A DNA stretch of 64,000 nucleotides from a virus. Below are positions 9,612-50,057 of the stretch, piece after piece; the stretch's first letter is position 1, and each line of letters opens with the position of its first letter. The stretch lies in the IMG/VR virus record IMGVR_UViG_3300009548_000002; one strand, written 5' to 3'. The notes beneath the pieces were generated by a model. The model had not been told where the DNA came from, did no database searches, and saw only the letters and a list, made by a program, of their open reading frames with translations. Both the position numbers and the translations under genes were made by a program.

Positions 9612-10801
9612 TGAGTGACGAACGAGAAAAATATTTCGTCCCTGAGAACGAGGTCGCTGGGAGCCGGCGCGAACACCTCTCGCCGTCGGGAAAATACAAA
9701 CTCGTCGTGTCGTCCTTCTCGACGCGCGAAGGCGGATGGAGCTACACGCGCGGCAAAGCCTTCAAGATCGGCTCGGATGAACCCATCGCTGTCGTCGATC
9801 GCAATTACTCGGCGTTCCCGTTCTCGTGGATCGAAGATCATCCGAACGGACACGCCTTCCTCATCGCGGGTGAGGATTACCAAGGACAGACCGTCGTCGA
9901 GCTGGATACCGGCAAGCGCCGCGACCACCTCGGCGAAGAGGCCGAGCAGGGTATCGAGTTCTGCTGGTCCGAGCACCGGTTCGATCCGAAGAGCATGCTG
10001 CTCGTCGTGTGCGGCTGCTACTGGGCATGCCCGTACGAGTTCCGCGTCTTCGACTTCATGAACCCGATGGCGGGATGGCCCGAACTCGAGATGTTCGGAC
10101 CGAGCGCCGAGAAAGACGATCGCGAATGGGTCGAGGAAGATCGCAAGTGGCCCGAGATCGTCGCTCCTGATTTGGCAACGCTTGGCCCGACCTTCGTTCG
10201 CACTTTCCAGACGGCGAATTACGACGAAGACGAAGACGAGAGCGACAAGGACGACGAAAGCAACAAGAGCGAGAAGGCGAAGAAGAACCCGGCAGAGATC
10301 CGCGCGATCAAGACTTTCAAACGCGTGGGTCCGAGGCTCATCTTGCAAGACGAATGGGTCTCGGAAGCCGAGAAGAAGTCGCGCCACGAGCGCGAAGAGG
10401 GTCGCAAGAAATACGAGGCCGAGGTCGCCGCCTTCCGCGCGAGCGACCCGCTCTACCTCGCGTACATGAACGAGCTGAACGCGTTCAGGCTCACATGCGA
10501 CGCGGACCATGAGCCCGAAGAACACGATTGGCACGGCATCACACACGACACTTGGTGTCCCGACTTCAAGAAGAAAGAGCGCCGGTGGGGTCGCCGCATT
10601 TACCAGCGAAAACGCAACGAGGCCGGCGTTCTCGAGTCCAGTAACCCCACGATCGAACTCGAATGGGCCGTAGAGACAGGCCCCGTCAAGCTCACGGTGT
10701 GGCACGGCGACGACGGCCCGAAGGTCGAACTCTTCTACGAGCACTCTGTAGATGGAATTCAGAAAGCGTTCGCGCGAGCGCGTGAAGAGATCGCGCGTTG
10801 A
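9611..10801 (+). CDS. Hypothetical protein, about 396 aa, acidic central linker
   Basis: Start MSDEREKYF overlaps the upstream stop; strong GC3 throughout. Confidence 0.6.
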   Translation: MSDEREKYFVPENEVAGSRREHLSPSGKYKLVVSSFSTREGGWSYTRGKAFKIGSDEPIAVVDRNYSAFPFSWIEDHPNGHAFLIAGEDYQGQTVVELDTGKRRDHLGEEAEQGIEFCWSEHRFDPKSMLLVVCGCYWACPYEFRVFDFMNPMAGWPELEMFGPSAEKDDREWVEEDRKWPEIVAPDLATLGPTFVRTFQTANYDEDEDESDKDDESNKSEKAKKNPAEIRAIKTFKRVGPRLILQDEWVSEAEKKSRHEREEGRKKYEAEVAAFRASDPLYLAYMNELNAFRLTCDADHEPEEHDWHGITHDTWCPDFKKKERRWGRRIYQRKRNEAGVLESSNPTIELEWAVETGPVKLTVWHGDDGPKVELFYEHSVDGIQKAFARAREEIAR

Positions 10802-12333
10802 GCTTTCCCTTCCTTCACCGCGAGACGCCCTCGGTCGTGCGCGTCCTTCATCCGGACATCGACATCAAGCTTTTCGCGAACGAGTCGGTCTCCGTGGAGG
10901 CCGACGCATTCGAGCAGCTCATCGAGTTCGCCGACGTGGCCCGCGCGATCCGAGAAGTTCGTGAGCGGGACACGCGCGGCGCCGGCGATCCGTTCTTCGG
11001 CGACGCCGCGCCCGCGATCGAACGCGTCGTGCTCACGCCGGACTTTCACAAAGGCTCGGGCATTCCCGTCGGCACGGTGGTTCAGGCAAAGAACGTCGTC
11101 ATCCCGCAAGCGATTGGCAACGACGTCTGCTGCGGGATGCGGCTCCTCGCGACCGATCTGCCGGCCGAGTCCCTCGAGCCGCACTGGCCCGCGATCCAGA
11201 AGCGTCTCCGCGCGATCTTCTTCGAGGGCGAACGCGACATCCCGATGTCGCCGCGGCAGCGCGAAGCGGTCCTCCGTCATGGCCTACCAGGTCTTGTGGA
11301 CACGTCGGACGACAATCTCACGCGAGGGATCTGGCAGCGCTTCGATCCGAAGTCGCAGCGGGATGACGTCCACCACGTGCACGGCGGCGGGATCCTTCCG
11401 ACAAGGAGACTCTTCGGGTTCGAGAACTTCATCCGCTCGTCGGGCAACATCGACGGCCGCGACCCGCAGATCGGATGCGTCGGCGGCGGCAATCACTTCG
11501 TCGAGATCCAGCGCATCGACGCGCTCTACGAGGGCCACGCGGCTCGCGCGTGGAACCTCGTCCGCGGCAACGTCGCCATCATGGTGCACTCGGGCTCCGT
11601 CGGGATCGGGCACGCTGTCGGTGGGCACTTTATGGATCGCGCGCGCGAGATCTTCCCGAGCGACATCGCGTCGCCGAAAGGCGGCTTCTTCCCACTGCCG
11701 ACGGAAGGACCGAGATGCGAAGAGGGACTCTTCTATCTCGACGGGATGGGGAACGCTGCGAACTTCGCCTTCGCGAACCGGCTCTTTTTGGGTCTCATGG
11801 CTCTTCGCGCCATCGAAGAGGCGACAGGGCTCAGTATCGATGCGCGGCTCGTTTACGACGCGCCCCACAACCTCGTCTTCAAGGACAACGAGTCGTGCCT
11901 CCATCGCAAAGGCGTAACCCCGGCGCACGGGCCAACGGACGACGGCCAAGGTTCCGAGTGGCTCGGCAAGCCTGTCATCATCCCGGGGTCCATGGGCGCG
12001 CCGAGCTACCTTCTCGCGGGCGAGGAGAACGATGAAGCACTCTCAAGCGCGTGTCACGGCGCCGGCCGGAGTCTCTCACGCGGAAAAGCGGCACATGTTC
12101 CGCGCTCCGAGTACCTCGAATCCGTGGAGCGCCTCCGCATCGTCGGGCCCGTCGATCCGAAGTCGCCGATGATGCGAATGAGGAAAGACATTCTCGATAA
12201 ATACGAGAAGCGCATGATGGAGGAGGCGCCTTACGCCTATAAACCCATCGAGCCCGTCATCGACTCTGTCGTGGACGCGCACGTTGCGCAGCGTGTGGCG
12301 AAGCTCTTCCCGCTCTGCACCGTGAAAGGGTGA
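10798..12333 (+). CDS. rtcB: RtcB-family RNA ligase (joins 3'-phosphate/2',3'-cyclic phosphate to 5'-OH)
   Basis: RtcB metal/GMP motif series: DVCCGMR, GGGNHFVEIQ, HSGSVGIGH, LHRKG, CHGAGR; TTG start overlapping the upstream TGA. Confidence 0.9.
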   Translation: MSFPFLHRETPSVVRVLHPDIDIKLFANESVSVEADAFEQLIEFADVARAIREVRERDTRGAGDPFFGDAAPAIERVVLTPDFHKGSGIPVGTVVQAKNVVIPQAIGNDVCCGMRLLATDLPAESLEPHWPAIQKRLRAIFFEGERDIPMSPRQREAVLRHGLPGLVDTSDDNLTRGIWQRFDPKSQRDDVHHVHGGGILPTRRLFGFENFIRSSGNIDGRDPQIGCVGGGNHFVEIQRIDALYEGHAARAWNLVRGNVAIMVHSGSVGIGHAVGGHFMDRAREIFPSDIASPKGGFFPLPTEGPRCEEGLFYLDGMGNAANFAFANRLFLGLMALRAIEEATGLSIDARLVYDAPHNLVFKDNESCLHRKGVTPAHGPTDDGQGSEWLGKPVIIPGSMGAPSYLLAGEENDEALSSACHGAGRSLSRGKAAHVPRSEYLESVERLRIVGPVDPKSPMMRMRKDILDKYEKRMMEEAPYAYKPIEPVIDSVVDAHVAQRVAKLFPLCTVKG

Positions 12334-15307: not shown

Positions 15308-17062
15308 TTACTGAAGTTCGGGCGAAAGGCTGTAGGCCTTCGCAGACCCGTCGATGAGTCCGAGCGCGCGGAGATCCGCGAGCGTCTGCCCGTACGACCC
15401 CGACGTGTTCGAACGTTTGATCGCCGAGGCGATGTCCTCGCGCGACATCGGGCCGGCGCGCCAGAGAGCGCGCAGGACGAGCCCGTCGCTGGCCGGGCGC
15501 TTACCGATCCACCACTCGAGGAGCGCTTCTCCCTTCGGGAGCTTCTCGACGTAGCCGGCGACCTTCGCATGTCCTTCGGTCGTGATCGCAAACTCCTTGG
15601 ACGACCCGACGATGTCTCCCGCCGCCCGCAGATCCGCAAGCGCTTGACCGAATGATCCGCTCGTGTGCGAGTAACCGGTCCAGATCGCAAGCTTCTTCCG
15701 GTTCATCGCACCACCCGCGGCGAGGGTGCAGAGGATCTTCTTCTCGATCGGGCTCATCCCGGCGATCGAAGATTCAGCCTTCGCCGGTTTCACCGGATAA
15801 ACGACTTCATACTCCTTGGCGAACTTCTTCTTCGCGGCGCCGTTCGCGTGCTCCATTTGAGCGGACGTCGGGCCGCCCTCGAGCCAACGCTTGAGCGCCT
15901 TGAGCAGGTAGGTGTTGGTCTCGAGGATCTTGTTGTGGATCTCCTCGGCGCTGTTGAAGACCTCGATTCGCATTTTCTCGAGCGTCTCGAGTTGCTCTTT
16001 TGCCCATTCTGCCTCGGTGCGACTGAGGAGCGGCTTCTCGGGCGGCGGCGCGAGCTTCACCTCGGCGACGCGGCTCGCGAGCTGCCGCTCGAGCTGCGCG
16101 ATCCGCGTGCGAAGCACCTTCGGATCCTCGGCGCTCGCCTTCTCGATCGCGTCCGCCATCTTCTTTTTGAGCGCGTCGAGGTCCACGTGCGCGAGCGTCG
16201 TGGGAGTCACGCGCTTCTCGCCGGCCTTCGGCGTCGCCGACGAGTCGAAGGTCCGGCGCTCGCGGACGGGCACCTCTTTGAAGATGTCGAGCCAACCGGG
16301 CGACCAGCACCACGCGACGCCGCGGGCGAGTTCCGGTAAGCGCGCCAAGAACGTCTCTTTCTGGTCGGCCGTGTCGTGCTGCTCGATCCACCCTTCGAGC
16401 GCTTTGCGATCTTGCGGCGAGCTTGTGCGGTGGCAGATGAGAAGCTCGAGTTGTGTCAAAATATCTTTGTTGACCGACGCCGCGCGCTGGTCGATGACGG
16501 CGACCCCGATGCCGCTCGTCCGTCCTTGGCGAACAAGTTTCTGGATCGCGCCGACCATCTGCGCTTCCGCCCCGGTCACCCGCTGCGGGACGAAAAGATG
16601 TCCCTCGTCGATGGCGAGCAGCATCGGCGTGTCGCGGCCCTCCTCGCCCTTCCTGTGGTAGAGCCTCCGCGCGAAATCCGTCACGAAGCGACGCATGTCG
16701 CCCTGCGACTCGAAGTGCCGGAGCGACAGGATCGCCGGCAGGCGCTCCTCGACGATGAAGTCCGCGACCGTCGCACCATCGGCCGCCGTGAGCGGGACGT
16801 CGCCGTGCCTGCCGCCGAAGACGATGACGGGGTAACCGGCCTCCTTGCCGTTCTTCGATGACTTGAGCCCCCACCAGACGTCGGTTGGGTCGATGATGAC
16901 GACCTGCTGCCCGGCGTCGAGCAGCTCCTCGGTGAGGACGACACACGTGTTCGTTTTGCCCGAACCGCGGATGCCGAGAATCGCGATGGTCTCCGTGATC
17001 GCCTCGAGTGGGAGCGACAGGGCCGTGGAGATGTGGAGCTTTTTCATTCTTTTTTCACCCAT
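15308..17062 (-). CDS. HerA/FtsK-superfamily P-loop ATPase (DUF87-like) with two C-terminal winged-helix repeats
   Basis: Walker A GIRGSGKT; Walker B LLAIDEGHLF; VIDQRAAS...LLICHRT; two homologous wHTH segments (MSPIEKKILCTLAAGG... and LVLRALWRAGPMSREDIASAIKR...). Confidence 0.8.
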   Translation of the reverse strand: MGEKRMKKLHISTALSLPLEAITETIAILGIRGSGKTNTCVVLTEELLDAGQQVVIIDPTDVWWGLKSSKNGKEAGYPVIVFGGRHGDVPLTAADGATVADFIVEERLPAILSLRHFESQGDMRRFVTDFARRLYHRKGEEGRDTPMLLAIDEGHLFVPQRVTGAEAQMVGAIQKLVRQGRTSGIGVAVIDQRAASVNKDILTQLELLICHRTSSPQDRKALEGWIEQHDTADQKETFLARLPELARGVAWCWSPGWLDIFKEVPVRERRTFDSSATPKAGEKRVTPTTLAHVDLDALKKKMADAIEKASAEDPKVLRTRIAQLERQLASRVAEVKLAPPPEKPLLSRTEAEWAKEQLETLEKMRIEVFNSAEEIHNKILETNTYLLKALKRWLEGGPTSAQMEHANGAAKKKFAKEYEVVYPVKPAKAESSIAGMSPIEKKILCTLAAGGAMNRKKLAIWTGYSHTSGSFGQALADLRAAGDIVGSSKEFAITTEGHAKVAGYVEKLPKGEALLEWWIGKRPASDGLVLRALWRAGPMSREDIASAIKRSNTSGSYGQTLADLRALGLIDGSAKAYSLSPELQ

Positions 17063-17349
17063 CGCTCACGACGATGACAGGATGGGCACACGATGTAGAA
17101 GCCGCGCTCATCTTCGATCATCGACCAGCCACCGACCGCGGCGTTCGCAGCGATCGTCCTCGTGATGTACTCGACATCCCTCGCAACCATGCGTCCGTCG
17201 GACTCGAGAACCTCGTTGCCGCGGCGCGCGAGATCATATTCGAGCTGCTTGCCGCACGGGCCGCCCTCGCGCCGCGCGGCCTCGCAACGAAGCATCCCGT
17301 TCGAACGGGTTTCGACGTGGATGCGATCGTTGAAATTCACTCCTCCCAC
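17044..17349 (-). CDS. Zinc-ribbon small protein
   Basis: CGKQ...CPSCHRRERW. Confidence 0.45.
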   Translation of the reverse strand: MGGVNFNDRIHVETRSNGMLRCEAARREGGPCGKQLEYDLARRGNEVLESDGRMVARDVEYITRTIAANAAVGGWSMIEDERGFYIVCPSCHRRERWVKKE

Positions 17350-18524
17350 TCCCCTTTTCGCGCGTCCCGTTCGGCCATCATCGCGAAAAGCGCCTCCCGA
17401 TCGGCTTCGTCTTTGGCCTGGGCCGCTTCGGCTTCTTCGTCGGTCATGCCGTCGACAGGCATGTTTCGCGCGTCGTCACCGTCGTCCCAGATCGTTCGCG
17501 CGTCGTATCGGAGAAACGCCGTCGCGACGGCGTTGTCGTATTCTTGCTGCTTGCCCCATGTAAGCCAATCGTTCACGAGGCGAGCGATTTCATCATGACC
17601 GGGGCGAAAGCTCAGCGGGATGCGATGGGACGCCCAACTTTTTGCGGGCTGAGGCCGTGCGAGCGAGATTCGTGCAAGCTCACGAGCGGCATGACCACCG
17701 TGTTTCTTCGACATGAGGAGCGGGAAGAGCGTCGAGATCGCGATGGCAGCGTCTTCCTCGGACGAGACGACGGGGCTATTGCCTCCGCGGAATTCGGCGA
17801 GCAGCTCGAGGCCCCTCTTCGATCGCGCGGCCCACGTGAGGGGCTCGCGTCCCGGGATCTCGATCGTCGTCCCCCGGCTGACGAACGCGTCGCGGAGATG
17901 GCGCGAGCAGAGCCAGCGCTTGCTGTAGGGCCAGTCGCTGTTCTCGTAGAGGAGGCGCCCCGCACCCTCACGCATGCAATATTCCTTCAGAGCGTTGCCG
18001 TTCTTACTCGCGGGGTCCTTGTCGTGGTCCGCGCAGCGGGCCTCGCCGTAGAGCTTGAAGAACTCCGCCTTGCTCGCCTCATTCTCCTCGTCCGCTTTCT
18101 TCCGCGCCGCCGCTTCCTCTTCGTACTGCTCGTCCGTCGCGACGTCGTCGCCACCCGCCACGCCGATCATGTAGTCGCTGATCTTCGGTTTCACCGCGAA
18201 TCCGTCGAAGATTTTCCGGAGGCACGCCTCGCAGATCGAGAACGCATAGTTCGTGCAGTCCGAGAGCGCCGGCGAGCTGTAACCGCCCGAGACCTTGGCC
18301 TCGACGAGCCCGTGCGGGCTCTCATGGTCGGCTGAATCGCCGGGGCAAAGGCACCCGCCGCACGCGTTGCAGACCCAGCTCTCGCGCGTGCGCAGGATGC
18401 CCGTGCCCTTGCACGAGCGGCACGAGACAGCCTCTTCGAAGTCGCCCTTCGCCCGCGCGACGCTGCACGCGACGCAAGGCTCGTACATCTTCGCCGTCTC
18501 TGCCACCCTCTGCTCCTCAACCAT
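17337..18524 (-). CDS. Hypothetical protein, 395 aa, with an N-terminal multi-Cys zinc-binding region
   Basis: CVACS...CRSCKGTG...CNACGGCLC; long ORF with good coding bias. Confidence 0.55.
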   Translation of the reverse strand: MVEEQRVAETAKMYEPCVACSVARAKGDFEEAVSCRSCKGTGILRTRESWVCNACGGCLCPGDSADHESPHGLVEAKVSGGYSSPALSDCTNYAFSICEACLRKIFDGFAVKPKISDYMIGVAGGDDVATDEQYEEEAAARKKADEENEASKAEFFKLYGEARCADHDKDPASKNGNALKEYCMREGAGRLLYENSDWPYSKRWLCSRHLRDAFVSRGTTIEIPGREPLTWAARSKRGLELLAEFRGGNSPVVSSEEDAAIAISTLFPLLMSKKHGGHAARELARISLARPQPAKSWASHRIPLSFRPGHDEIARLVNDWLTWGKQQEYDNAVATAFLRYDARTIWDDGDDARNMPVDGMTDEEAEAAQAKDEADREALFAMMAERDARKGEWEE

Positions 18525-27943: not shown

Positions 27944-28113
27944 AGGCCAGGATCGTCTTCGAAGACGGCGATCGCTCCTCCTCGGATCGCCATTACGTGG
28001 CCATCTTCCTCGGCAGAGACAAGATCGCCGAGAGCCGCTCGATGAGCGAGAAGGACTGCGAGAAGCTCTGCAAGCGCATCAACGACGCCATCGCCAAGGA
28101 ACGCGAGGCCTGA
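27934..28113 (+). CDS. Small protein, about 59 aa (below track cut-off)
   Basis: Hand translation: MGLKARIVFEDGDRSSSDRHYVAIFLGRDKIAESRSMSEKDCEKLCKRINDAIAKEREA; ATGA overlaps on both sides. Confidence 0.35.
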   Translation: MGLKARIVFEDGDRSSSDRHYVAIFLGRDKIAESRSMSEKDCEKLCKRINDAIAKEREA

Positions 28114-29288
28114 TGCTGAGCGATCTGCGCGCCTTTGAAGTCGTGCTCGCGCGCGCCACGTGTCCCGAGGACGTGTTCGGCGTGGCCCTGAACCTCGCCG
28201 CGCTGAAGAAGTCCTTCCACCACATCGCCGTCGTCGTGCATCCGGACAAGTACGCCACCGATGCCGCCACGTCCCGACTCGCGCAAGACCTCTTCGCCAA
28301 GCTCGTCGTCTGGATGAACAGCGCCGAGCACAAAATGGAGCGCGGGACCTACGGCGACCGCGCGCCGCACGAGCCTGCCCCGCCCCCGAAGCCGAAGACC
28401 GCTCTGCAGATCATCGAGACCCCGAAGCGCCGCTACGTCGTCAAGGACCTCCTCGCGCAGGGCGACGTCGCCGACGTCTACGCCTGCACGTACGTGGACA
28501 AGGGCCGGAGCGGCGACGGCGATCACCCCGCCGCGTTCAAGATCGCCCAGAGCGCCGCGGACAACGACCTCATGGAGAACGAGTCGCGCACGCTCTCGGC
28601 GATGTACCCGCCCGCACAAAAAGAAGAACGCTTCTACCGCTACCTCCCGAAGCCGGTCGACTCGTTCCTCCTGAAGTCGGGTGGCGGCGCCGCGCGACGC
28701 GTGAACGTGATGCAGCTCGCGGAGGGTTACGTCTCGCTCGCCGAGGTCATGGCGGCGTACCCGCACGGCCTTGACTACAAAGATGTCGTCTGGATGCTGA
28801 AGCGAAATTTGGCGGCCCTATGGTACTGCCACAGGCAGAAGCTTGTCGTCCACGGCTGCATTATTCCTACAAACCTATTGGTCCATCCGACCGGACACGG
28901 CGCAAAGGTTGTTGACTGGTGCTACGCCGTTCGCGACTGGCCGAACGACAAGGACCACGTCAAAGCGATCAGCAAGGCGTGGAGGGCATACTACGCGCCC
29001 GAGATCCTCGCGAAAAAGCCGCCGACGCCGTCGGCCGACCTCTACATGCTCGCGAAGATCGTCGTGAAGCTCCTCGGCGGTGAAGTCGCGGAAAGCTCGC
29101 CCTCTTTCCTCATCCCCGATGCTGTTCCGAAACCGATTCGATCGTTTCTCTCGGGCATGCTCCTCATGAACCCAGCCCGTCGCCCCGACGACGGCGGCAA
29201 GCTCCACGAGGAGTTCGACGAGCTGCTCCTCAAGCTCGTGGGCAAGCCCAAGTACAGGCCGCTCGTCATGCCCGCGAGGACCGCGTGA
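28113..29288 (+). CDS. J-domain (DnaJ-like) fused to a protein-kinase-like domain with non-canonical catalytic motifs
   Basis: J-domain HHIAVVVHPDKYATDAA...LFAKLVVWMN; kinase-like AAFKIAQ, ENESRTL, VVHGCIIPTNLLVH (HRD replaced by HGC), VVDWCYA (DFG replaced by DWC), YYAPEIL, DLYMLAKIVVKLLGG. Confidence 0.65.
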   Translation: MLSDLRAFEVVLARATCPEDVFGVALNLAALKKSFHHIAVVVHPDKYATDAATSRLAQDLFAKLVVWMNSAEHKMERGTYGDRAPHEPAPPPKPKTALQIIETPKRRYVVKDLLAQGDVADVYACTYVDKGRSGDGDHPAAFKIAQSAADNDLMENESRTLSAMYPPAQKEERFYRYLPKPVDSFLLKSGGGAARRVNVMQLAEGYVSLAEVMAAYPHGLDYKDVVWMLKRNLAALWYCHRQKLVVHGCIIPTNLLVHPTGHGAKVVDWCYAVRDWPNDKDHVKAISKAWRAYYAPEILAKKPPTPSADLYMLAKIVVKLLGGEVAESSPSFLIPDAVPKPIRSFLSGMLLMNPARRPDDGGKLHEEFDELLLKLVGKPKYRPLVMPARTA

Positions 29289-29315: not shown

Positions 29316-29666
29316 ATGTGTGATGACAGCCCGAGCAGTTACCGAACGAATGCGAAGGCTCCCGAGACAGAGCGCTTGTCTCGAAGACCTTGGCTTCTTC
29401 GACGGCGCTCTTGGCAGCTCTACACGCTCGGCAGCGTCATCGGCGTCGCGTTCGGCCTACTGCCGATGTATCTCGAGCATCGGTATTATCCGTCTTCGCC
29501 TCAGCCTTCACCGCTTCCAGCGAAGCCTGCACCCACGTGCAAGGATTCGTTCGAGTGGATCACCGATCGGTGCGACGAACCGTTGAAGCACACCTGCGAG
29601 CCTGGACAGAAGCTGGAAATGCCGAAGGAAGGCACCAGTACGTACATGATCTGCCGCTGCAAGTGA
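29316..29666 (+). CDS. Small Cys-rich membrane/secreted protein
   Basis: TM stretch LYTLGSVIGVAFGLLPMYL; six Cys in the C-terminal half. Confidence 0.4.
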   Translation: MCDDSPSSYRTNAKAPETERLSRRPWLLRRRSWQLYTLGSVIGVAFGLLPMYLEHRYYPSSPQPSPLPAKPAPTCKDSFEWITDRCDEPLKHTCEPGQKLEMPKEGTSTYMICRCK

Positions 29667-29680
29667 GATCGGAAAACACC

Positions 29681-29974
29681 ATGAACGGACTCACGCGTGA
29701 ACAACTCGAAGTGATGGCGGCGAGGCTCGCCGACGAAGCGATCCGTCGCGGCGCGCGCGGCGTCGTCGTCGCTGTGTCCTCTGAAGAAGGCGACCACTCG
29801 AACTACTGGGTCACGCACCGCGGTCCGTGCCTCGAGGTCGAGGGGCTCGCGTCCCGCATCGCCGCGTACATCGGCGGAATTTGGAACGGCAAGATCAAGA
29901 CACGGGCGTTCGGTGCAACCGCATCCGTGGATGAGGGAGGCGTCGTCAACGAGACGAGCGTGAGATCAAAATGA
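29681..29974 (+). CDS. Hypothetical small protein
   Basis: Start MNGLTREQLEV inside track ORF 29390-29974. Confidence 0.4.
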   Translation: MNGLTREQLEVMAARLADEAIRRGARGVVVAVSSEEGDHSNYWVTHRGPCLEVEGLASRIAAYIGGIWNGKIKTRAFGATASVDEGGVVNETSVRSK

Positions 29975-30156
29975 CCATCCTGGAAACGACAGAAGAAGAG
30001 CGCGAACACTTTCGCCGAACGAACGACTTCGTCGGAGGCATGTCCGCAAAAGCGCTCGCCGCCGATCTCGACAAGGCGCTCGAGTTCATCGAGGAGCTGA
30101 GCAAGCAGCCGTACCTGGATCGCTACGCTGCACGCTTCGAAGCGTTCAAGCGGTAG
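29971..30156 (+). CDS. Hypothetical small protein
   Basis: ATGA overlap. Confidence 0.35.
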   Translation: MTILETTEEEREHFRRTNDFVGGMSAKALAADLDKALEFIEELSKQPYLDRYAARFEAFKR

Positions 30157-31366: not shown

Positions 31367-31582
31367 ATGACGAAGCGAGCAAAGATGCCGGAGCGATCCG
31401 GCGGCGACGGTCGGATCGAGTGTAACCGTGAGGGCGAGCATCTTCTTCTGTCGTGCACGCAGAACGGCGAGACGACGACCGTCCGCATGAGCGACTACAA
31501 CGCGTGGCGCGCCTTCGGTCTCTTGGCGGTCATGCTCAAGATCCCGCTGCCCGACGCGCTCGGCAGGGAGATTAAGTTCTGA
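31367..31582 (+). CDS. Hypothetical small protein
   Basis: Track ORF. Confidence 0.35.
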   Translation: MTKRAKMPERSGGDGRIECNREGEHLLLSCTQNGETTTVRMSDYNAWRAFGLLAVMLKIPLPDALGREIKF

Positions 31583-31587
31583 GGTGA

Positions 31588-31806
31588 GTGATGCATGAAA
31601 AAAGCGAAGAGCTGACGGACGCGCAACTGCGTTTGCTCGGGCGAGCCGTTCGCGGACTCTGCTCCATCTCTCCGGACGAGCGAACAGATGCCGATCGTCT
31701 CGAAGCGCTCGGGTTCATCGTCATCGACGACATCGGGTGGGAAGCTCTTGCGGATCCGACCAATGCTGGCCGGGTTTTCTTGAGCGAGCACGACAAGAGA
31801 GGGTGA
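31588..31806 (+). CDS. Hypothetical small protein
   Basis: Track ORF. Confidence 0.35.
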   Translation: MMHEKSEELTDAQLRLLGRAVRGLCSISPDERTDADRLEALGFIVIDDIGWEALADPTNAGRVFLSEHDKRG

Positions 31807-31807
31807 G

Positions 31808-32008
31808 ATGTTTTTGGCGATGAAGTCCAGATCTCGATCTCGATCGCTCACGCAGGAGGAGCGAGAAGAGGCGCGTCGGCGCGAGCATGCGTACCGTGAG
31901 GCATGCAGGCTCGAGGACGAAGCGAACGTCGTCATCAAGCCGCTCACGTGGTGGAGACGCTTCTTCTTGTGGCTTGGCAAGACCTTCACCCGATGGGGAG
32001 CGACGTAA
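31808..32008 (+). CDS. Hypothetical small basic protein
   Basis: Track ORF. Confidence 0.3.
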   Translation: MFLAMKSRSRSRSLTQEEREEARRREHAYREACRLEDEANVVIKPLTWWRRFFLWLGKTFTRWGAT

Positions 32009-32011
32009 ACA

Positions 32012-33396
32012 TGGCGAACATCACCCTCGTCCTCGGTCTCGGATTTGGCGATGAAGGCAAAGGCGGCTGCGTAGATTTTTTGGCGCGTCACCACGACGCT
32101 CGGCTCGTCGTGCGGTTCAACGGTGGAGCGCAAGCGGGTCATAATGTCATCGACCCAAACGGACAGCACCACTGCTTCTCGCAGTGGGGATCGGGTACCT
32201 TCGCGGGCGCGCGGACGCTCCTGTCGCGGCACGTGCTCGTGAATCCGATCTTCGCCGAGAGCGAGGCGAGGCACCTCGAGTCCGCCGGCGTCCGGGATCC
32301 CTACGCGCTCCTCTCGGTCGAGCGACTCGCGCCCGTCACGACGCCGTTCCACGTCGCCGCGAACCGGTGCCGCGAGCTTTCGAGGCAAGCGGCGAGCGGC
32401 AGCGTGCACGGGAGCTGCGGCATGGGCGTCGGCGAGACGATGGAGGATCTCGTGGAGGGGAGAGAGACCGTTTGGGTGCGCGACTTCGAGGACGACACCC
32501 CGACGCTCAAGCGGAGACTCTTCCGCATCCAGGAGCGGAAGCGCTCCGAAGTCCTCCAGCTCGCGGCCCTCGATCGCCGCTCCCCGCGCGTCCTCCAAGA
32601 ACTCTTTGTGCTCGAGGACCCGAGCATCGTCGACGCCGTCTGCGCGTCGTACACGAAGTTCGCCCGTAAAGCGTCGATCGTGAATCAAGATTTCCTCGAG
32701 CGCGAGCTGGACGCTCCCGGCCACGTCGTTTTCGAGGGCGCGCAGGGCGTCCTCCTCGACGAGTGGTGGGGCTTCCACCCGCACACGACGTGGAGCACGT
32801 GCACCTTCGACAACGCGACGGAGATCCTCGGCGCCGAGCGCGCGGGCCGCGCTCGGCGCATCGGGGTGCTCCGCACGTTCCACACGAGGCACGGAGCCGG
32901 CCCCTTTCCGACGGAGAATAAGAGCATGGACGCGCTCTCGGCGGACGACCACAACAAGCGCGACCCTTGGCAACACGATTTCCGCACCGGAGCCTTCGAC
33001 CTCCTCCTCGCGCGGTACGCGCTCGACGTGTGCGGCGGGTGCGACGGCCTCGCCTTCACGCACCTCGACAAGCTCGAACGGCGCGCGAGCCTACCCGTCG
33101 CCATCGGGTACTACGTGGACGGCGCCAAGATGGTGCGCATCCCGCACCGGCGCCCGAACGATCTCCAATACCAAGAGCGACTCGGCCGGCAGCTCGCACA
33201 AGCGCAACCCATCTATGCCTCCGCGGATCTTGGCGGCGAGCGCATCGCCATGCTCCACGTGGAAGGACTCGCCGAAATGCTCGAGACTCCGCTTGCGATC
33301 ATCTCACGCGGCAAGACCGCTGCAGACAAGATCACTTTGGGTGAAGGCGCGCATGCTTCCCCGCGCCCGCAGTTCTCCACGCCGCCACCCAACTGA
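32012..33396 (+). CDS. Adenylosuccinate synthetase-family enzyme (PurA/PurZ-like), divergent in substrate-binding motifs
   Basis: GLGFGDEGKGG P-loop; GGAQAGHNV; FEGAQGVLLDEWWG; HTRHGAGPFPTE. The IMP loop reads GSCGMGVGE (canonical TTGRGIGP), the aspartate loop WQHDFRTG (canonical RRRRTG), and the guanine motif THLD (canonical TKLD). Start at MANITLVLG inside track ORF 31903-33396. Confidence 0.85.
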
Positions 33397-44216: not shown

Positions 44217-45123
44217 TCACGTCTCGGCGCGCTTGCGCCGGACAAGCTCGGTGACGAGGCCCGCGGAAGGACCGTGCGCGCGAAAGTAGACGATGGATTT
44301 TCTTCCCGGCCTCGCGCAGAGTTGGCACTCGAGGCACGTGAGCTTATGCGTCTGCGCTGGGCACGAGACGAGCTTGCGGCCCTCGGGCGTCCGGTCCGGG
44401 ACCTCCGCGCGCTCGGGCACGACGACCACGACGGGCGCAATGCCGAGCCCAGCCGCGGCGTCCGCCTCTTCGATTGAATCGGTCGAGAGGTTCACGACGA
44501 ACCCTTGCCGCGTGGCCTCGGTGATCGCGCGCCGGTTCTTCTTCCGGACGAGCACCTGCCACACCTTCGGAAGGACCGGCTTGTGCGTGAACGTGAAGCC
44601 GCGTCGTCCCGCTTGGGCGCGTGCGAGCTGCTGGAGCCTGCCCATGTCGATGGCGTTGCCCTCGCCAGGGAGATCGCCTGCCTCGTTGAAGCGCCAGAGC
44701 GTTCCTTCCTCGAGCGCAGCGACCTCGCAGAGGAAGTCGTCCCACGGCATGCCGCGCTCGCGGACGCGATCCCAATGGTAGCGATCGAAACCGTTGTCGG
44801 CGTAGCAGCCGGCCTCGTAGAACATGCACGCGGGCGGGCACGTCCCGCGCTCGGAGTACGTCGTCGGGATGGGTCCGAGCTTACGATTCCCGCTCCGGGG
44901 GACGAAGGAGATGCGTCCGGCGCTCGCGGCATCTTTCCTCTTCGGTCTCGCGTCGAGCTTCTCCGCGGGAGTCTTCCGCTCCCAGTCGCCGTATCGCTTG
45001 TTGCGCTTGTCGCTGCATGCGTTGCAGAGCGCGTCATGCTCGCGTCCGCGCCGGACGAACGCCGCGCGGGGTTTGTTTCGGTGGCAGCGCGCGCAATTTT
45101 TGGCCGCCGTGGACCCCGCCCTC
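44217..45123 (-). CDS. Zinc-finger protein, about 302 aa, encoded immediately downstream of the HDAC-like gene
   Basis: CARCHRN...CNACSD at the N-terminus; GTCPPACMFYEAGCYADNGF; LTCLECQLC; N-terminal extension of track ORF 44217-45803 rejected. Confidence 0.5.
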
Positions 45124-46015
45124 ATGGCTCTTTTTCGCAGTAGACGCGCGCGCACTCGCGCATCGTGTTGTCGTGGACCTCGAGCACTTTCGGGATGCTT
45201 CCGTCCTTCTCTCGCTGGTAGCCGCCGGCGAGGTTCCACGCGACGGGGATCTCGGCGGCGGGGATCTCGGCGGCGGAGAGCGCGTCGAAGACGATCGCGT
45301 CGCGCCGCCGAAGTTGCTCGGTCGTGAGCCAGCCGCCGTACGGGTCGTCGATGTGCGGGTCGGCGCCGGCTTGGTAAAGGACGACGTCCACCTTGTCGAG
45401 GATCATGTGCGCGAGGACCTCGGGGAGTCCCTCGTCGAGGAACGCCTCCGCCTGATCGGGCCTCGTCCAGTTGAGGCCCGCGGTGAAGTGCGTGATCCAA
45501 TCCGCACCGAAGCGGTTCTTGATGTTCACGGTGCCGTTGCCGTAGTGCATGTCGAGGTCGAGGATGCCGACGCGCGGGATGCCGTCCGCCTTCAACGCGA
45601 AGGCGGCGACCATGAGGCCGTTGAACGTGCAAAAGCCCTCCGCGCTCGCGTAGCCCGCGTGGTGGAAACCCGAGCACGGCGCCGCGGCCGCGGCGCCGGT
45701 CGAGATCGCGAGGCGTGCCGCCTGGAGCATCGCGCCGGACGTGTACGGGAGCGCGGCGGCGACCTCGGGCGACTTGTTGCCGAAGCCGTTGGGCTTTTTG
45801 CATCTGAGGATGTCTTCAGCCCAGTCGACCGCATGCACACGCGCGTAATCGCTGAGCGTCACGGGCCGCGGTTCGAGGATCGTGATCGGGAATTTGTTCT
45901 GCCACGAGGCCACGACCTCCTTCGGCTTCTTCGCGCTCGGAGACTCGCAACCGGAATCGGCGACCATCTTCGGCGTGTAGAAGACCGGAATCTTGAAGAG
46001 CTTGCCTCTCGCCAT
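45122..46015 (-). CDS. Histone-deacetylase-family (HDAC/AcuC/acetylpolyamine amidohydrolase) zinc hydrolase
   Basis: HHAGYASAEGFCTFNGL; VGILDLDMHYGNGT (D-x-D-x-H metal site); VVLYQAGADPHIDDPYG; AGGYQ catalytic Tyr. Confidence 0.75.
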   Translation of the reverse strand: MARGKLFKIPVFYTPKMVADSGCESPSAKKPKEVVASWQNKFPITILEPRPVTLSDYARVHAVDWAEDILRCKKPNGFGNKSPEVAAALPYTSGAMLQAARLAISTGAAAAAPCSGFHHAGYASAEGFCTFNGLMVAAFALKADGIPRVGILDLDMHYGNGTVNIKNRFGADWITHFTAGLNWTRPDQAEAFLDEGLPEVLAHMILDKVDVVLYQAGADPHIDDPYGGWLTTEQLRRRDAIVFDALSAAEIPAAEIPVAWNLAGGYQREKDGSIPKVLEVHDNTMRECARVYCEKEP

Positions 46016-46210
46016 TTTTCACCCTCTTTCGGAACCGGTCGCCCGCAATTTTCGTCGCCATGCGCTTCCGGACGAGCCTTTCTCGGGATCCGGACGACCG
46101 GACGCGAAGGGCGGGACGCACCCACGCATTTGACATGCCCGAACCCGATTCGTCAAGGACAGTTGGTTGTGATCGGGCTTGCATCACACGCAGTTACTCG
46201 TTACAGTATG

Positions 46211-46417
46211 GGCATGACCAAGAAAGCGAAGCCCGCAGCCAGCCACGCCTCCACCATCCAGATCACGTTCCGGATTCCCGAGGAGTGGCTCGAGTGGGCC
46301 GACGAACTCGCGTCGAAGCACTCGGCGCCGGGCCTCGTCCTCACGAGGACGGATGGTTTCCGGACGGCCATGGCCGCGGGGTTCGAAAAATACGGCAAGA
46401 AGTCGGCGACGCGGTGA
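46211..46417 (+). CDS. Small ribbon-helix-helix-like protein
   Basis: STIQITFRIPEEWLEWADELASKH pattern; excellent GC3; divergent from the HDAC operon. Confidence 0.4.
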   Translation, partial: GMTKKAKPAASHASTIQITFRIPEEWLEWADELASKHSAPGLVLTRTDGFRTAMAAGFEKYGKKSATR

Positions 46418-46425
46418 CGCGCGAA

Positions 46426-46643
46426 TGCCCGTCACGTTGAGCGACGACGAGGTCCGAGAGATCCGCGCGCTTCTCCACGACCTCGCGTGCAATCCTTTCT
46501 CGGGAGGCGAGATCAATGCCATGGGCGGCCTCCGCTCCGTTCTCTCGCGTGGGCTGCTCTCCAAGCTCTGCGTTCAAATCCCCGAAAATAAAGCCGCCGA
46601 AGCGTTGCGAACAATCGACTCCTCAAGCGCCGACCAAAAGTGA
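46426..46643 (+). CDS. Hypothetical small protein
   Basis: Start MPVTLSDDEVREI inside track ORF 46353-46643. Confidence 0.4.
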
Positions 46644-46897
46644 TCCGCTTCATCACGCGCTGGGCGCTCACGAAAGGGATCCTCGAAGTCGACGGGGACT
46701 ACTCGCCCGACGGCAAGAAGTTCATGGCGAGGCCCCCGCACCACCTGGTCGTCGACCGCGACTACGCGTTCACGCTCCTCACGCAGGCCGAATCCGTCGC
46801 TCGGACCATGGCCAAGAGCGAGATCATCGAGCTGCAGAAAGAGATCAAGAGGCTCGAGTCCTTCAAGCCCAAGATCGTGCGCATGGAGAAGAAATGA
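46640..46897 (+). CDS. Hypothetical small protein
   Basis: GTGA/ATGA overlap. Confidence 0.4.
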   Translation: MIRFITRWALTKGILEVDGDYSPDGKKFMARPPHHLVVDRDYAFTLLTQAESVARTMAKSEIIELQKEIKRLESFKPKIVRMEKK

Positions 46898-47166
46898 AAA
46901 AGAAGAAGGCGACTCCTTCAGGCACGAAAAAACGCAGCTCCGCCAAGCGCGCGAAACGCATCGTGCACGTCCCGCTCGCCAAGCTCGACAAGGTCTGCCG
47001 CGAATGCGGCAAGGTGAAGGAGAGCACGGTCGTGCGCACCTACTACGCGAAGAATTACACGGGCCCGTGCGCGGACTCGTTCTGCTACGCGAGCTGCGAC
47101 AGCTCCTCGTGTCGGCCGGTCACGCGTGTCATCTGCAGCGACTGCGAGGAGAAGCTCAAGAAATGA
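46894..47166 (+). CDS. Zinc-finger small protein
   Basis: CRECGK...CADSFCYASCDSSSC...CSDCEEK. Confidence 0.45.
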   Translation: MKKKKATPSGTKKRSSAKRAKRIVHVPLAKLDKVCRECGKVKESTVVRTYYAKNYTGPCADSFCYASCDSSSCRPVTRVICSDCEEKLKK

Positions 47167-47234
47167 GCCAAGAAGAAACATGCTGAGGACCGCGGTGCAG
47201 CAGAGAGCGATCTGCGCATCTACTGCTGCGAAAC

Positions 47235-48173
47235 ATGCTGGGAGCACGAGCGCGTGCGCCAGATGCACATAAGCGATCGATCATGACCGAGAAGCGGCGT
47301 CCCGGCGTGCGTATCACTCAGGCCTCCTCACTCTATCCCTCCAATGATCGAAAACTATCCCGTGAGGAACTTGGTCCATGGCTCCCGAAGCCCTTGCCTC
47401 GACGCCGCCGCTCTCCATTTCCGCCCCGCCGCGTCTTCGGTTACTGCCGAGTCGATGGTGACTCGATTGCCGACCAGGAGGCCACCATCAACGCAGCAGC
47501 ACATGCACGAGGCCTGAGTCCTACCAGAATTCTCAAGGAGGCGAAGTCGGGCGTCGGTTGGAAGGCGGAGACACGCGACGAGATCCACGCCTTGCTCGCA
47601 GACATCCGCGAGGGTGACCTCGTCCTCGTCGACAAGCTCGCACGCTGGTCTCGCGATCCCGACTTCATGTACGAGACCGTGCGAGAGATCATTCAAGCGA
47701 AGGCTGACATCCACTTCATCAGCGAGGACATCGACCCCGCGACGGCGCGGGGAGCTGAAGAACTGTCGCTTCGCATCGCGTTCGCCCGACGGGCGCACGC
47801 GCATTTCCGGCAACGCACCAACCGCGGCCGCGAGCGCCTCCGCGACGCGGGCTACCGTGCTGAAGGGCTCCCGTCGTTCGGTTACAGGCGCGGTGAAGGG
47901 GCTACGCTAGTCGTGGTCGAAGAGAAAGCTGCGATTGTGGCGCGAGCGTTCGCGATGTGCATCTCAGGCAGTTCCGTGATCGAGATCTCTCGAGCACTCG
48001 GCCTTGGACGCAGCATCGTCAGTAAGATCCTTCACAACCGCATCTACATCGGTGAGCTGCGCGACTCCGACGGCAAATGGATCCGCGCGAAGCATGACCC
48101 GATCGTGGATCCCGACGTCTTCGCCACAGCGGCCGCCGCAATCGAGGCTCGCCGGTGCGCCAAGCCGCGATGA
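47235..48173 (+). CDS. Serine recombinase (resolvase/invertase catalytic domain plus recombinase domain); start uncertain, possibly TTG about 47388
   Basis: VFGYCRVDGDSIADQ catalytic motif; LPSFGYRRGEGATLVVVEEKAAIVARAF recombinase-domain motif; low GC3 in the first ~50 codons of the track ORF. Confidence 0.7.
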   Translation: MLGARARAPDAHKRSIMTEKRRPGVRITQASSLYPSNDRKLSREELGPWLPKPLPRRRRSPFPPRRVFGYCRVDGDSIADQEATINAAAHARGLSPTRILKEAKSGVGWKAETRDEIHALLADIREGDLVLVDKLARWSRDPDFMYETVREIIQAKADIHFISEDIDPATARGAEELSLRIAFARRAHAHFRQRTNRGRERLRDAGYRAEGLPSFGYRRGEGATLVVVEEKAAIVARAFAMCISGSSVIEISRALGLGRSIVSKILHNRIYIGELRDSDGKWIRAKHDPIVDPDVFATAAAAIEARRCAKPR

Positions 48174-48194
48174 ATTCGACGAACGATGAGACTT

Positions 48195-48515
48195 TTAGAA
48201 CCGCCTAATCTCCTGGGCACAATCAAGTGACCAGTCTCGGGGGAGTGGGATCGTAGGATCGTGCACGCGGATCCGCTCGTACTCGGCGGGCGTCACCTCC
48301 GCAATGGCGACGGGGAACGGGTCCGAGTCAGACGCCGCGAAGGTGTACACGTCGACGCGTCCCGTCGCAATCGTGGCCCCATTCACCTCGAGCAACTTGA
48401 TCGGCTCGCTCTCGTTCATCTCGTCGTCGCCGAGGAAACGGATCACGTGTGAAAGATCGGGCTCGTGATCGAAATGCCACGCGACGAGTGCGTGCGCCGC
48501 TTCGCCCTTCGTCAT
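48195..48515 (-). CDS. Hypothetical protein
   Basis: Track ORF. Confidence 0.4.
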   Translation of the reverse strand: MTKGEAAHALVAWHFDHEPDLSHVIRFLGDDEMNESEPIKLLEVNGATIATGRVDVYTFAASDSDPFPVAIAEVTPAEYERIRVHDPTIPLPRDWSLDCAQEIRRF

Positions 48516-48868
48516 CGGCTATCCGGCGCACGGTCATAGCTTCGGATCCCGGAAGGATCGAGCAACTCGTTCGCCCGTTCCCAGAACTCGTCGAGCTGCT
48601 CGCGTAGCGCGTCACCGGTACCTTCCGCTCGATACCGCTCGACGAGCTGCATCGCTCGAAACAGATTGCCGGACATCAAAGCCGCCCGCACCGCGCCGAC
48701 ACGCGAAACTTGGCCCGGCAATACGTTCGGGCTCGTCAACTTCGCGATCTCTTCCTCGAGATCCGCGACGACGGCGTACGCAGCTTGCGCTTCGCACGTG
48801 CCGGGTTGCTCGTGCTCCGCCACCCAAATTGCAGCGGTGACGCGCCGGTTGAGATCATCCAGTAACAC
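48512..48868 (-). CDS. Hypothetical protein
   Basis: ATGA overlap. Confidence 0.4.
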   Translation of the reverse strand: MLLDDLNRRVTAAIWVAEHEQPGTCEAQAAYAVVADLEEEIAKLTSPNVLPGQVSRVGAVRAALMSGNLFRAMQLVERYRAEGTGDALREQLDEFWERANELLDPSGIRSYDRAPDSR

Positions 48869-48873
48869 GAGTG

Positions 48874-49294
48874 CTACTCCACCTGCGGGAGGACCCGCTC
48901 CGTCATCGAATCGCGAACGATGATTTCGCCGAAGCGCGAACGCAGTTGGCCATCAGTGGCGCCCGTGAGCAGTTGGATGATCGGACGAAGCACGGAAAGG
49001 CGAACGTGCTCGTCGCTCACGCGCGTCTCATGCGCGATGAAGACGCGCGGGTGCGGGCACACCGCATCTCCCAGCATTTCCCGGACACGCGCGAGCGACC
49101 GCGGGGCGAGAGCGTACGTCTCGCCGTCTCGGCTAGCGCTGCGGTAGACCACCAAGGGTACGCTCGCTCCGCTTGCGGAGAGTTTCTCCTGCGCGAGGCG
49201 CTGGACCTCCCGGAGTTCGCCCGTCTCCTCGAAGAGAGACTCGAGCGGCGATCCGACGTTGGGATGGTTCGGGAGTTTCGGGAAGTTCTTCATG
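48874..49294 (-). CDS. Hypothetical protein, about 140 aa
   Basis: Start MKNFPKLPNH; C-terminal part of ORF 48874-49470. Confidence 0.4.
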
Positions 49295-50057
49295 GCCTTC
49301 TCTGCATGCTTTGCAAATCGATCGAGCTTGCCCGAACAAGTCGATTGCGAAGAAGTGGACGGTTCCGCCAGTGATCGTTGCGAACCTTGGCGTAGCCTTC
49401 CCGATGCGCCTTCATACGTCCAATGATGCCCTGGGCATCCTCCACGCGCACGTAGACGCCCTCCATCCAATCCGAATCGTCCGTCTCATCCATCGGCCGC
49501 GTGATCCCGACGCGTTTGGCTTCTTCAGCCAAAACGCTGCGCCACGCGGGCGTCTTGTAGAAACTCTTCCCGATGAACGAGCCGAACGCCGGCGCTTTCC
49601 CGAACGGGCCCGACCAAAGGCAAGACACGACGACCACGTCGCACGCGGCGAGCAGATCGTCACGATGAGCGACGCCCAGAAACCGTTCGCGTTCCCTGTC
49701 GAAGACGTCGTAGCCGAGCAGCCAGTCGGGGAGCGCGTCGTAATAGGCCTTGTGCTTCGCGAAACACCACTCGCCGTAAAGCACGTAACGACAGCCGAGC
49801 GCGTCGCGAAGGGCGTCCACGCGCTCCGCGGCCCACCCGTGAAAAGGTGCGAATTGCCGCTCTGAAAGTCCACCCCTCAAGATGTGACCACGACTCTGGA
49901 GCCGAATCTCGCCTTCCTCGAACCAGATGCCGACGTTGGCGCCGTCGACCTTCTCCTCCACGACGACGACGCGCGCGTGCTTCCACGCCTCATAGATGTC
50001 CTCGGTCGCGAGCGACGTGAGTCTGGGTGTCTTCGGGAATTTGATCGCGTCGCCCAT
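49290..50057 (-). CDS. ATP-dependent RNA/DNA ligase-family nucleotidyltransferase (probable RNA ligase)
   Basis: Motif I VVVEEKVDGANVGIW (KxDG lysine-adenylate site); YVLYGEWCFAKHKAY resembles motifs IV/V. Confidence 0.6.
   Translation of the reverse strand: MGDAIKFPKTPRLTSLATEDIYEAWKHARVVVVEEKVDGANVGIWFEEGEIRLQSRGHILRGGLSERQFAPFHGWAAERVDALRDALGCRYVLYGEWCFAKHKAYYDALPDWLLGYDVFDRERERFLGVAHRDDLLAACDVVVVSCLWSGPFGKAPAFGSFIGKSFYKTPAWRSVLAEEAKRVGITRPMDETDDSDWMEGVYVRVEDAQGIIGRMKAHREGYAKVRNDHWRNRPLLRNRLVRASSIDLQSMQRRP

Follow-up and report, generated by a model that had tools for sequence, protein, structure and literature searches.

What does an adenylosuccinate synthetase (PurA) homologue do in a phage when the segments that should bind its substrates no longer resemble those of PurA? 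The question is posed by a gene at positions 32,011 to 33,396 of a 64,000-nucleotide stretch (the window) of the virus record IMGVR_UViG_3300009548_000002. A sequence-only reading of the window had described the gene product as a divergent PurA-like enzyme with altered substrate pockets and had put it forward as a candidate PurZ, the phage enzyme that makes the precursor of 2-aminoadenine (Z). The first part of this interpretation holds: the protein has the PurA fold and its remodelled pockets imply altered substrates. The second part, the PurZ assignment, does not. Our comparisons place the gene in a previously uncharacterised, monophyletic sister clade of PurA, whose members are encoded next to an obligate partner with a von Willebrand factor A (vWA) fold. 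We give somewhat better than even credence to a reading in which the product is an active, guanosine triphosphate (GTP)-dependent enzyme that uses a nucleophile other than aspartate, within a cassette acting in the economy of nicotinamide adenine dinucleotide (NAD+) and ADP-ribose as a phage counter-defence.

Fold and active-site residues of the PurA-like enzyme

The gene in question is the following open reading frame (ORF), whose start codon lies one base before the position 32,012 given in the sequence-only reading:

32011..33396 (+): PurA-like enzyme gene, 461 amino acids; ATG at 32011, stop codon ending at 33396

The ORF is real. A GGGAG Shine-Dalgarno sequence sits about 10 nt 5' of the ATG, directly past the stop of the preceding small ORF, the G+C content at third codon positions is 0.81, typical for coding DNA in this 62% GC window, and an identical 461-residue protein has been called on a public metagenome contig (P0001). 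Residues 7-437 match the adenylosuccinate synthetase family PF00709 (E = 8e-62), and all motifs that had been quoted for this fold are present: the P-loop GDEGKGG at residues 13-19, GGAQAGHNV at 38-46, FEGAQGVLLD at 241-250 and GAGPFPTE at 295-302. The three segments reported as remodelled are so. GSCGMGVGE (residues 134-142) in the loop that binds inosine monophosphate (IMP), WQHDFRTG (320-327) in the aspartate loop and THLD (350-353) in the guanine motif align with GTTGRGIGP, GRRRRTG and TKLD of E. coli PurA, in agreement with the canonical forms cited earlier.

Searched with phmmer against all PDB sequences, the protein finds E. coli PurA as its best match (1e-30). Its AlphaFold2 (AF2) model is predicted with high confidence (predicted local distance difference test score, pLDDT, 92.7) and superimposes on PurA structures, ligand-bound ones among them, with template modelling (TM) scores of about 0.8 (0.75-0.87). 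The top 31 chains in the Foldseek ranking are all long-form PurA (query-normalised TM score, TMq, 0.64-0.82; 20-26% identity), followed by two short PurA chains from Pyrococcus. The NCBIfam equivalog models for PurA (NF002223, TIGR00184 and others) score far below their cut-offs, at 168.7 bits versus 402, 137.7 versus 395.6 and 122.7 versus 700. In a neighbour-joining tree, phage and bacterial PurA-like members form one clade, sister to bacterial PurA.

Residue conservation was counted over 120 homologues of 43-100% identity, in E. coli PurA numbering. The catalytic D13 and K16 are kept in 119 of them, the remaining sequence being gapped there. H41, Q224, T239 and the guanine-specifying D333 are kept throughout, and the SxG guanine loop keeps its glycine in all 120 and its serine in 115. 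Because these residues are retained in 115-120 of the 120 homologues, the GTP-binding and phosphoryl-transfer core is under purifying selection.

The pockets for the other two substrates follow a different pattern. The aspartate loop, TTGRRRR in PurA, becomes (P/E)WQxxFR, with T300, T301, R303 and R305 lost and only the fourth arginine kept; R303 of PurA touches both the aspartate substrate and O2' of IMP (PMC8342488). Replacements N38->Q, T129->C, V273->H and G302->Q occur in every homologue, T301->W in 117, S240->W in 116, R305->F in 113 and R131->M in 100, and K331 is replaced by H, N or C. In the numbering of the window protein, the replacement residues are Q41, H133, C136, W261, H294, H314, W320, Q321 and F324. 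The IMP loop GTTGRGIGP reads HGSCGMGIGE in the PurA-like family. In E. coli PurA structures, the 5'-phosphate of IMP is held by N38, T129, T239 and R143', the last of which extends into the IMP site from the neighbouring subunit. Three of these four ligands are changed (N38->Q, T129->C and a variable position 143), and T239 alone is kept. The substitutions are family signatures, neither drift nor the alignment artefacts that had been considered a possible explanation, since they are constant across the 120 homologues. A new set of residues, conserved to the same degree, has taken the place of the aspartate pocket and of most of the IMP-phosphate pocket.

These data bear directly on the simplest explanation, namely that the gene is an ordinary auxiliary metabolic PurA, merely divergent, that raises AMP synthesis during infection. 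Its best sequence and structure matches are indeed PurA (EC 6.3.4.4; E. coli structures 1ADE and 1CG0), with which it shares, at 22-26% sequence identity, the long-form fold, the overall length, the GDEGKG P-loop with Asp13, His41, Gln224, Asp333 and the SxG guanine elements; D13, H41, Q224 and the GTP site are intact. However, the aspartate-binding R303 and R305 are gone together with T300/T301, the IMP 5'-phosphate ligands N38, T129 and R143 are changed, V273->H and S240->W are added to these, and the changes are invariant across phages and at least six bacterial phyla. The score of 169 bits against an equivalog cut-off of 402, the separate clade and the gene neighbourhood point the same way: the PurA-like gene always adjoins a vWA gene and often a pseudokinase gene, neither of which is found at true purA loci. 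Judged as a PurA, the protein has the fold and the GTP and phosphotransfer residues, and lacks the aspartate ligands, the IMP-phosphate ligand set and the family-level scores. We therefore regard an ordinary PurA function as very improbable.

PurZ and the 2-aminoadenine question

Would the enzyme instead make the 2-aminoadenine precursor from deoxyguanosine monophosphate (dGMP), in a phage whose genome carries Z in place of A? PurZ and PurZ0 (phiVC8, 6FM1; S-2L, 7ODX; PurZ0, 7VF6) are likewise phage-borne paralogues in the PurA superfamily with altered substrate pockets, and the window protein matches the same family, PHROG 1211, which is labelled with the PurZ name. RefSeq copies of its homologues in cluster C mycobacteriophages bear that name as well. 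The traits by which we recognised a PurZ, taken from the phiVC8 sequence and the literature (PMC8342488), are a Ser in place of Asp13, a conserved Thr-rich tip of the aspartate loop, the absence of the guanine-specifying Asp and the use of ATP or dATP.

The residues argue against such an assignment. The phiVC8 PurZ (from NC_027118) has a GSTGKG P-loop with Ser for Asp13, a basic KKVRR aspartate loop and no Asp in the xKxD motif; at these positions, the PurA-like protein reads GDEGKG, WQHDFR and THLD, the opposite at each. It thus keeps D13 and the guanine-specifying D333, both of which phiVC8 PurZ lacks, and it has lost the basic aspartate loop, although PurZ retains such a loop and still binds and uses aspartate. 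The architecture differs too, as PurZ has the short archaeal-type form of about 340-370 amino acids and the window enzyme the long form of 461. The NCBIfam PurZ model (NF038379) gives 37.1 bits against a cut-off of 300, with the N-terminal 55 residues alone matching, and the BLASTP alignment with phiVC8 PurZ is confined to residues 1-52. No PurZ chain appears below E = 0.01 in the phmmer search of the PDB, PurZ/PurZ0 chains occupy only ranks 34-43 in the Foldseek search (TMq 0.47-0.59; 15-18% identity), and PurZ forms a remote outgroup in the tree.

The neighbourhood offers no support either. In Z-phages, datZ, mazZ and dpoZ cluster with purZ. Searches by tblastn with the phiVC8 DatZ, MazZ-2 and primase matched neither the window nor any of about 170 fetched loci, and DpoZ has no match in the window and a single weak match (25% identity, E = 2e-5) among those loci, in an unrelated viral locus (L163). 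The earlier statement that no MazZ, DatZ or DpoZ partner is evident in the window is thus borne out. One gene had been left as a possible DatZ:

22081-22659 (-): HD_4 (PF13328) protein, 192 amino acids; among solved structures closest to small alarmone hydrolases and to the hydrolase domains of RelA/SpoT (E about 1e-10)

We rejected its candidacy based on the PF13328 match and these relatives; its similarity to DatZ is limited to 26 residues around the HD motif. The protein probably hydrolyses (p)ppGpp/(p)ppApp for the phage, rather than acting as a DatZ-type dATPase. With score, residues, architecture and neighbours all pointing away from PurZ, we consider the 2-aminoadenine reading scarcely credible.

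The RefSeq names deserve a comment. In RefSeq records of cluster C mycobacteriophages (NC_054718, NC_021346, NC_011272 and others), the family is called '2-aminooxy adenylosuccinate synthetase', whereas the GenBank originals say 'PurA-like'. Since PHROG 1211 lumps the PurA-like family with PurZ, the PurZ-type name is probably an annotation artefact propagated from that family.

A three-gene cassette and its NAD+/ADP-ribose neighbours

The PurA-like gene is the last of a cassette of three conserved genes, which in the window are separated by small ORFs:

28113..29288 (+): putative J-domain pseudokinase, 391 amino acids; Pfam Pkinase, 3e-10; PHROG 3043
29316..30156 (+): three small ORFs (116, 97 and 61 amino acids) in the gap from the kinase-like to the vWA gene, as called on the identical contig L001
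30248..31243 (+): vWA protein, 331 amino acids; PHROG 2971, function unknown; assigned by AF2 and Foldseek
31367..32008 (+): three small ORFs (71, 71 and 66 amino acids) between the vWA and PurA-like genes, the last stopping 2 nt before the PurA-like ATG

In bacteria and mycobacteriophages, the cassette genes abut and the first set of small ORFs is absent. The second set is lineage-specific; a relative with 85% identity (L002) has another small ORF at that place. A megablast search with 24 kb of the window against 50,697 phage records returned no near-identical annotated phage. Among annotated genes, the nearest relatives, at 37-38% identity, carry the name 'PurA-like' and come from about 200 cluster C mycobacteriophages. 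In mycobacteriophage LRRHood, gp253 ('serine/threonine kinase'), gp254 (hypothetical), gp255 (a small ORF) and gp256 (PurA-like) follow the same order, and a kinase-like gene, a gene for a protein of about 331 amino acids and a PurA-like gene are likewise arranged in Labilithrix luteola and on other chromosomal contigs.

We scanned bacteria with one genome per species, yielding 63 loci with at least 3.5 kb of upstream sequence, and viruses through 79 IMG/VR loci, mostly on contigs of 100-500 kb. A vWA gene adjoins the PurA-like gene upstream in 61 of the 63 bacterial and 75 of the 79 viral loci, the four viral exceptions being truncated by a contig end that coincides with the match or falls slightly upstream of it. 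Of the same loci, 46 bacterial and 62 viral ones have the kinase-like gene. True purA loci (about 29% identity) have neither neighbour. The vWA protein is accordingly an obligate partner of the PurA-like enzyme and the J-domain pseudokinase a frequent one. Carriers of the cassette include jumbo-phage contigs, cluster C mycobacteriophages and many bacteria, the bacterial members coming from Streptomyces, Streptosporangium, Actinomadura, Micromonospora, Nocardia, Chloroflexota, Planctomycetota, Myxococcota, Bacteroidota and bacteria of the candidate phyla radiation (CPR).

The vWA partner is better conserved than the PurA-like enzyme itself. The window copy has no match in Pfam-A, its listed homologues have no Pfam domain on record, and a sequence-profile search against the PDB found no relatives; its AF2 model (pLDDT 88.7), by contrast, matches integrin I-domains and the von Willebrand factor A3 domain in Foldseek (E about 1e-5, probability 1.0). 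The metal ion-dependent adhesion site (MIDAS) motif of this Rossmann-like fold, DxSxS ... T ... D in its general form, reads D71-x-T73-G74-S75 ... G182-D183-E184 and is invariant. Two homologues (P0159 and P0163) carry an intein of about 250 amino acids close to the MIDAS, exactly within the GY|LFxIGDE motif (between GY and (C)FLIGDE). Intein sites usually fall at functionally critical residues, and we take the exact insertion there in two homologues as a sign that this motif is critical to the protein. The N-terminus reads 'MG' in 118 of 120 homologues and the C-terminus '[E/D]RL' in about 115 of 120, both on flexible tails modelled with low confidence. It is unusual for a second residue and a C-terminal triplet to be conserved in this way.

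The kinase-like partner begins with a region that aligns with the J-domain of E. coli DnaJ (hhalign probability 87.6%, E = 3.5e-6) and has its signature of helix II, HPD and helix III, the HPD motif being kept in 10 of 12 aligned N-termini; the Pfam DnaJ model does not match it. Across 49 family sequences, the kinase domain retains the VAIK Lys and the alphaC Glu, as well as an Asp in a 'DWC' motif that stands where DFG is expected, and the catalytic loop reads VHGC(I/V)xPxN or VHGA rather than HRD. Because the catalytic Asp of the HRD motif is absent family-wide, the protein classifies by its sequence as a pseudokinase or an atypical kinase. Where its gene follows the PurA-like gene, in operons of the NrtR-NAMPT type (L095:11368-12411 and L100:11335-12333), the kinase-like protein has no J-domain N-terminus.

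When the flanking ORFs were clustered, a fourth recurrent gene emerged, encoding NrtR (Pfam NUDIX plus NrtR_WHD), an ADP-ribose-responsive repressor of NAD metabolism genes (PMC2330246). NrtR-regulated genes of unassigned function, 'nrtX-nrtY', are on record as well (Rodionov 2008). In high-GC loci, NrtR tblastn matches that overlapped the PurA-like gene were deemed alternative-frame artefacts and left out of the counts. About 35 of the 63 bacterial loci (about 56%) have NrtR upstream on the same strand, and the commonest bacterial architecture, nrtR-kinase-like-vWA-PurA-like, accounts for 28 of the 63. Among the viral loci, NAMPT (10 loci) and NrtR (9) are the sole recurrent neighbours beyond the three cassette genes. 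In several loci, the cassette is interleaved with genes of NAD+ salvage and ADP-ribose metabolism:

L006: NrtR-NAMPT-NMNAT-kinase-like-vWA-PurA-like
L095 and L159 (jumbo-phage contigs): NrtR-NAMPT-vWA-PurA-like-kinase-like-NMNAT
L096: NrtR-vWA-Nudix-NAMPT-PurA-like-kinase-like
L147: vWA ... NAMPT-Prs-PurA-like
L073 and L075 (Bacteroidota): NrtR, Prs-like, vWA, short PurA-like, NADAR, Macro, KptA/Tpt1, NAMPT, PARG and a 2-oxoglutarate oxygenase

We set aside the idea that the cassette replaces Prs metabolically, as L073 and L147 carry a Prs-like gene along with it. In some jumbo-phage and bacterial loci, the cassette thus shares its genomic company with the NAD+ reconstitution pathways NARP1 (Adps and Namat), NARP2 (Nampt and Nmnat) and NARP3 (PnuC and an NadR-like protein), which also occur in both phages and bacteria; this distribution is compatible with a role in an NAD+ arms race. 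No cassette protein is homologous to a NARP component, however, and the window has no NARP genes.

Candidate functions and wider context

How could such an enzyme work? On the reading that we favour, the gamma-phosphate of GTP would most probably phosphorylate an oxygen of a bound nucleotide-type substrate, as in PurA. A nitrogen nucleophile other than free L-aspartate would then displace the phosphate, with an aromatic W/Q/F pocket standing where the aspartate-binding arginines were. Since aspartate would not be the nucleophile and the acceptor site has been rebuilt where the phosphate binds, the product should differ from both adenylosuccinate and the dZ precursor. As the terminal gene product of a mobile cassette, the enzyme would operate together with its obligate vWA/MIDAS partner and usually the J-domain pseudokinase. 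We infer that the cassette is concerned with the breakdown products of NAD+, whether by processing them, recycling them or responding to them, because it is found under NrtR in bacteria and is interleaved with NAD+ salvage and ADP-ribose genes in several jumbo phages and Bacteroidota. In a jumbo phage, it may serve an auxiliary or counter-defence function against host immunity that depletes NAD+ or ADP-ribosylates targets.

Several observations weigh against this reading. Sequence by itself would assign no substrate to the enzyme, and the kept D13 and Q224 suggest a hypoxanthine- or guanine-type lactam as the acceptor, which has no obvious place in NAD+ chemistry. The partners, a J-domain, a vWA domain and a pseudokinase, look like protein-binding or chaperone modules and may fit a protein-directed or signalling role at least equally well. 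NAD genes (NrtR and NAMPT, with or without NMNAT) stand beside the cassette in no more than 11 of the 79 viral loci, and the window itself has no homologue of NrtR, NAMPT, NMNAT or Prs, so the link for this phage rests on guilt by association elsewhere. NrtR-type regulators also control operons unrelated to NAD, for example in pentose utilisation and in conflict systems centred on ADP-ribosylglycohydrolase (ARG) (PMC2330246, PMC9503650).

A bolder form of the NAD+ reading, which we consider a long shot, is that the PurA-like enzyme and the vWA protein are the core of a fourth, GTP-driven route of NAD+ rebuilding or recycling, with a precursor or breakdown product of NAD+ as the acceptor. In one version, the 1''-OH at the anomeric carbon of ADP-ribose might be phosphorylated and the phosphate displaced by nicotinamide, making the enzyme a one-enzyme analogue of NARP1, or a nicotinate nucleotide might be amidated. 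The kept D13 and Q224 would suit a one-step conversion of IMP to AMP with ammonia, although such a reaction makes no clear sense in terms of NAD.

The chaperone-like character of the partners leads to a serious rival explanation, which we rate as rather unlikely, though clearly above that bolder form. Here, the partners would bind a target, such as an ADP-ribosylated protein or an immune effector, and the PurA-like enzyme would modify a protein amine, either the N-terminal Gly of the vWA protein or a lysine; alternatively, the enzyme would produce a nucleotide that acts as a signal or a toxin, within a conflict system gated by NrtR. All three partner modules (J-domain, vWA/MIDAS and pseudokinase) serve in protein interaction, and the conserved ends of the vWA protein (its 'MG' start and '[E/D]RL' end) lie on flexible tails. 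An arginine-rich pocket for a carboxylate would be superfluous if the nucleophile were a free Gly alpha-amine, and the enzyme could couple a purine nucleotide via C6 to this invariant N-terminal Gly, giving a new kind of protein-nucleotide conjugate. Furthermore, vWA proteins and Nudix-type regulators recur in predicted conflict systems directed against ADP-ribosylation (PMC9503650), one bacterial locus adjoins AbiE, and in PADLOC the kinase-like protein is weakly similar to the defence kinases PD-T4-6 and MAD6. The same PADLOC search gave no match for the enzyme or the vWA protein, however, and protein modification by a PurA-fold enzyme would be without precedent. The interleaving of the cassette with NAD+ synthesis genes favours a metabolic role, and its abundance in phages beside NAD genes of the counter-defence type also speaks against a protein-directed module.

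Known systems with similar parts are vWA-kinase regulatory modules such as the TerY-P triad, which consists of a vWA protein, a Ser/Thr kinase and a PP2C phosphatase, and the ARG-centred systems against ADP-ribosylation, whose regulators are of the Nudix or WYL type and whose chaperones are vWA proteins (Iyer et al. 2022). The cassette appears to have in common with them the vWA/MIDAS and kinase folds and a Nudix-type ADP-ribose sensor. It differs in having no PP2C phosphatase and no ADP-ribosylglycohydrolase core, in a kinase with a J-domain and no catalytic Asp, and in a third member of the PurA fold, which is not reported in either kind of system.

Outside the cassette, the window contains the following genes:

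9611-10801 (+): 396-amino-acid protein with no family match, translationally coupled upstream of RtcB
10798-12333 (+): RtcB RNA ligase (PF01139, 6e-86)
15308-17062 (-): HerA/FtsK-like ATPase (DUF87 and HerA_C), with a weak PHROG 'terminase large subunit' match
17337-18524 (-): 395-amino-acid protein with no match, adjoining the HerA/FtsK-like ATPase
26427-27326 (-): 299-amino-acid protein with an N-terminal SEC-C zinc-binding motif, divergent from the cassette and kept in the 85%-identical relative L002
44217-45125 (-): DUF7227 protein
45122-46015 (-): histone-deacetylase-family protein (PF00850)
47283-48173 (+): serine recombinase/resolvase
49290-50057 (-): RNA ligase (PF09414)
59157-60605 (-): 482-amino-acid protein with no match, adjoining the tail-protein match
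60916-61815 (-): weak PHROG 'major tail protein' match (6e-8)

Contigs of 186-261 kb or more, many small ORFs, RtcB, the RNA ligase, the alarmone-hydrolase-like HD protein and the weak tail-protein match make it probable that the window is part of a jumbo phage. Identical copies of the RtcB pair (9611-12333) occur on 186-kb contigs and, as part of another block, on contigs of up to 1 Mb. The genes at 44217-50057 sit among many small ORFs and recur on contigs of 193-261 kb, which fits a jumbo phage or another very large mobile element. The tail-protein match at 60916-61815 is the sole virion-like signal seen in the window and may mark the edge of a structural module.

To our knowledge, PurA-fold enzymes carry out two types of reaction, those of PurA and of PurZ/PurZ0, and both use aspartate. 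A family that keeps the GTP phosphotransfer machinery and discards the aspartate pocket points to a reaction that has not been described. What appears new is a PurA-superfamily clade with its own specificity and its own three-gene context; the fold and probably the first half-reaction would be those of PurA. In full-text literature searches, we found no report of this family or cassette, or of its link to NrtR, NADAR, vWA proteins, NARP pathways or anti-phage defence, and the papers that we found on NAD+ and phages do not mention it. The family is large, with thousands of database proteins from jumbo phages to actinomycetes to CPR bacteria. Annotation pipelines label its genes PurA or PurZ, and the latter name would wrongly suggest Z-genomes in cluster C mycobacteriophages. 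The partners and the placement under NrtR and among NAMPT, NMNAT, NADAR, Macro and KptA genes tie the family to NAD+ and ADP-ribose, an active front of phage-bacteria immunity. If the NAD+ route were true, jumbo phages, cluster C mycobacteriophages and actinomycetes would have a means to survive NAD+-depleting immunity, and the cluster C mycobacteriophages (Bxz1-like phages on M. smegmatis) offer a culturable, experimentally tractable system in which to study the cassette.

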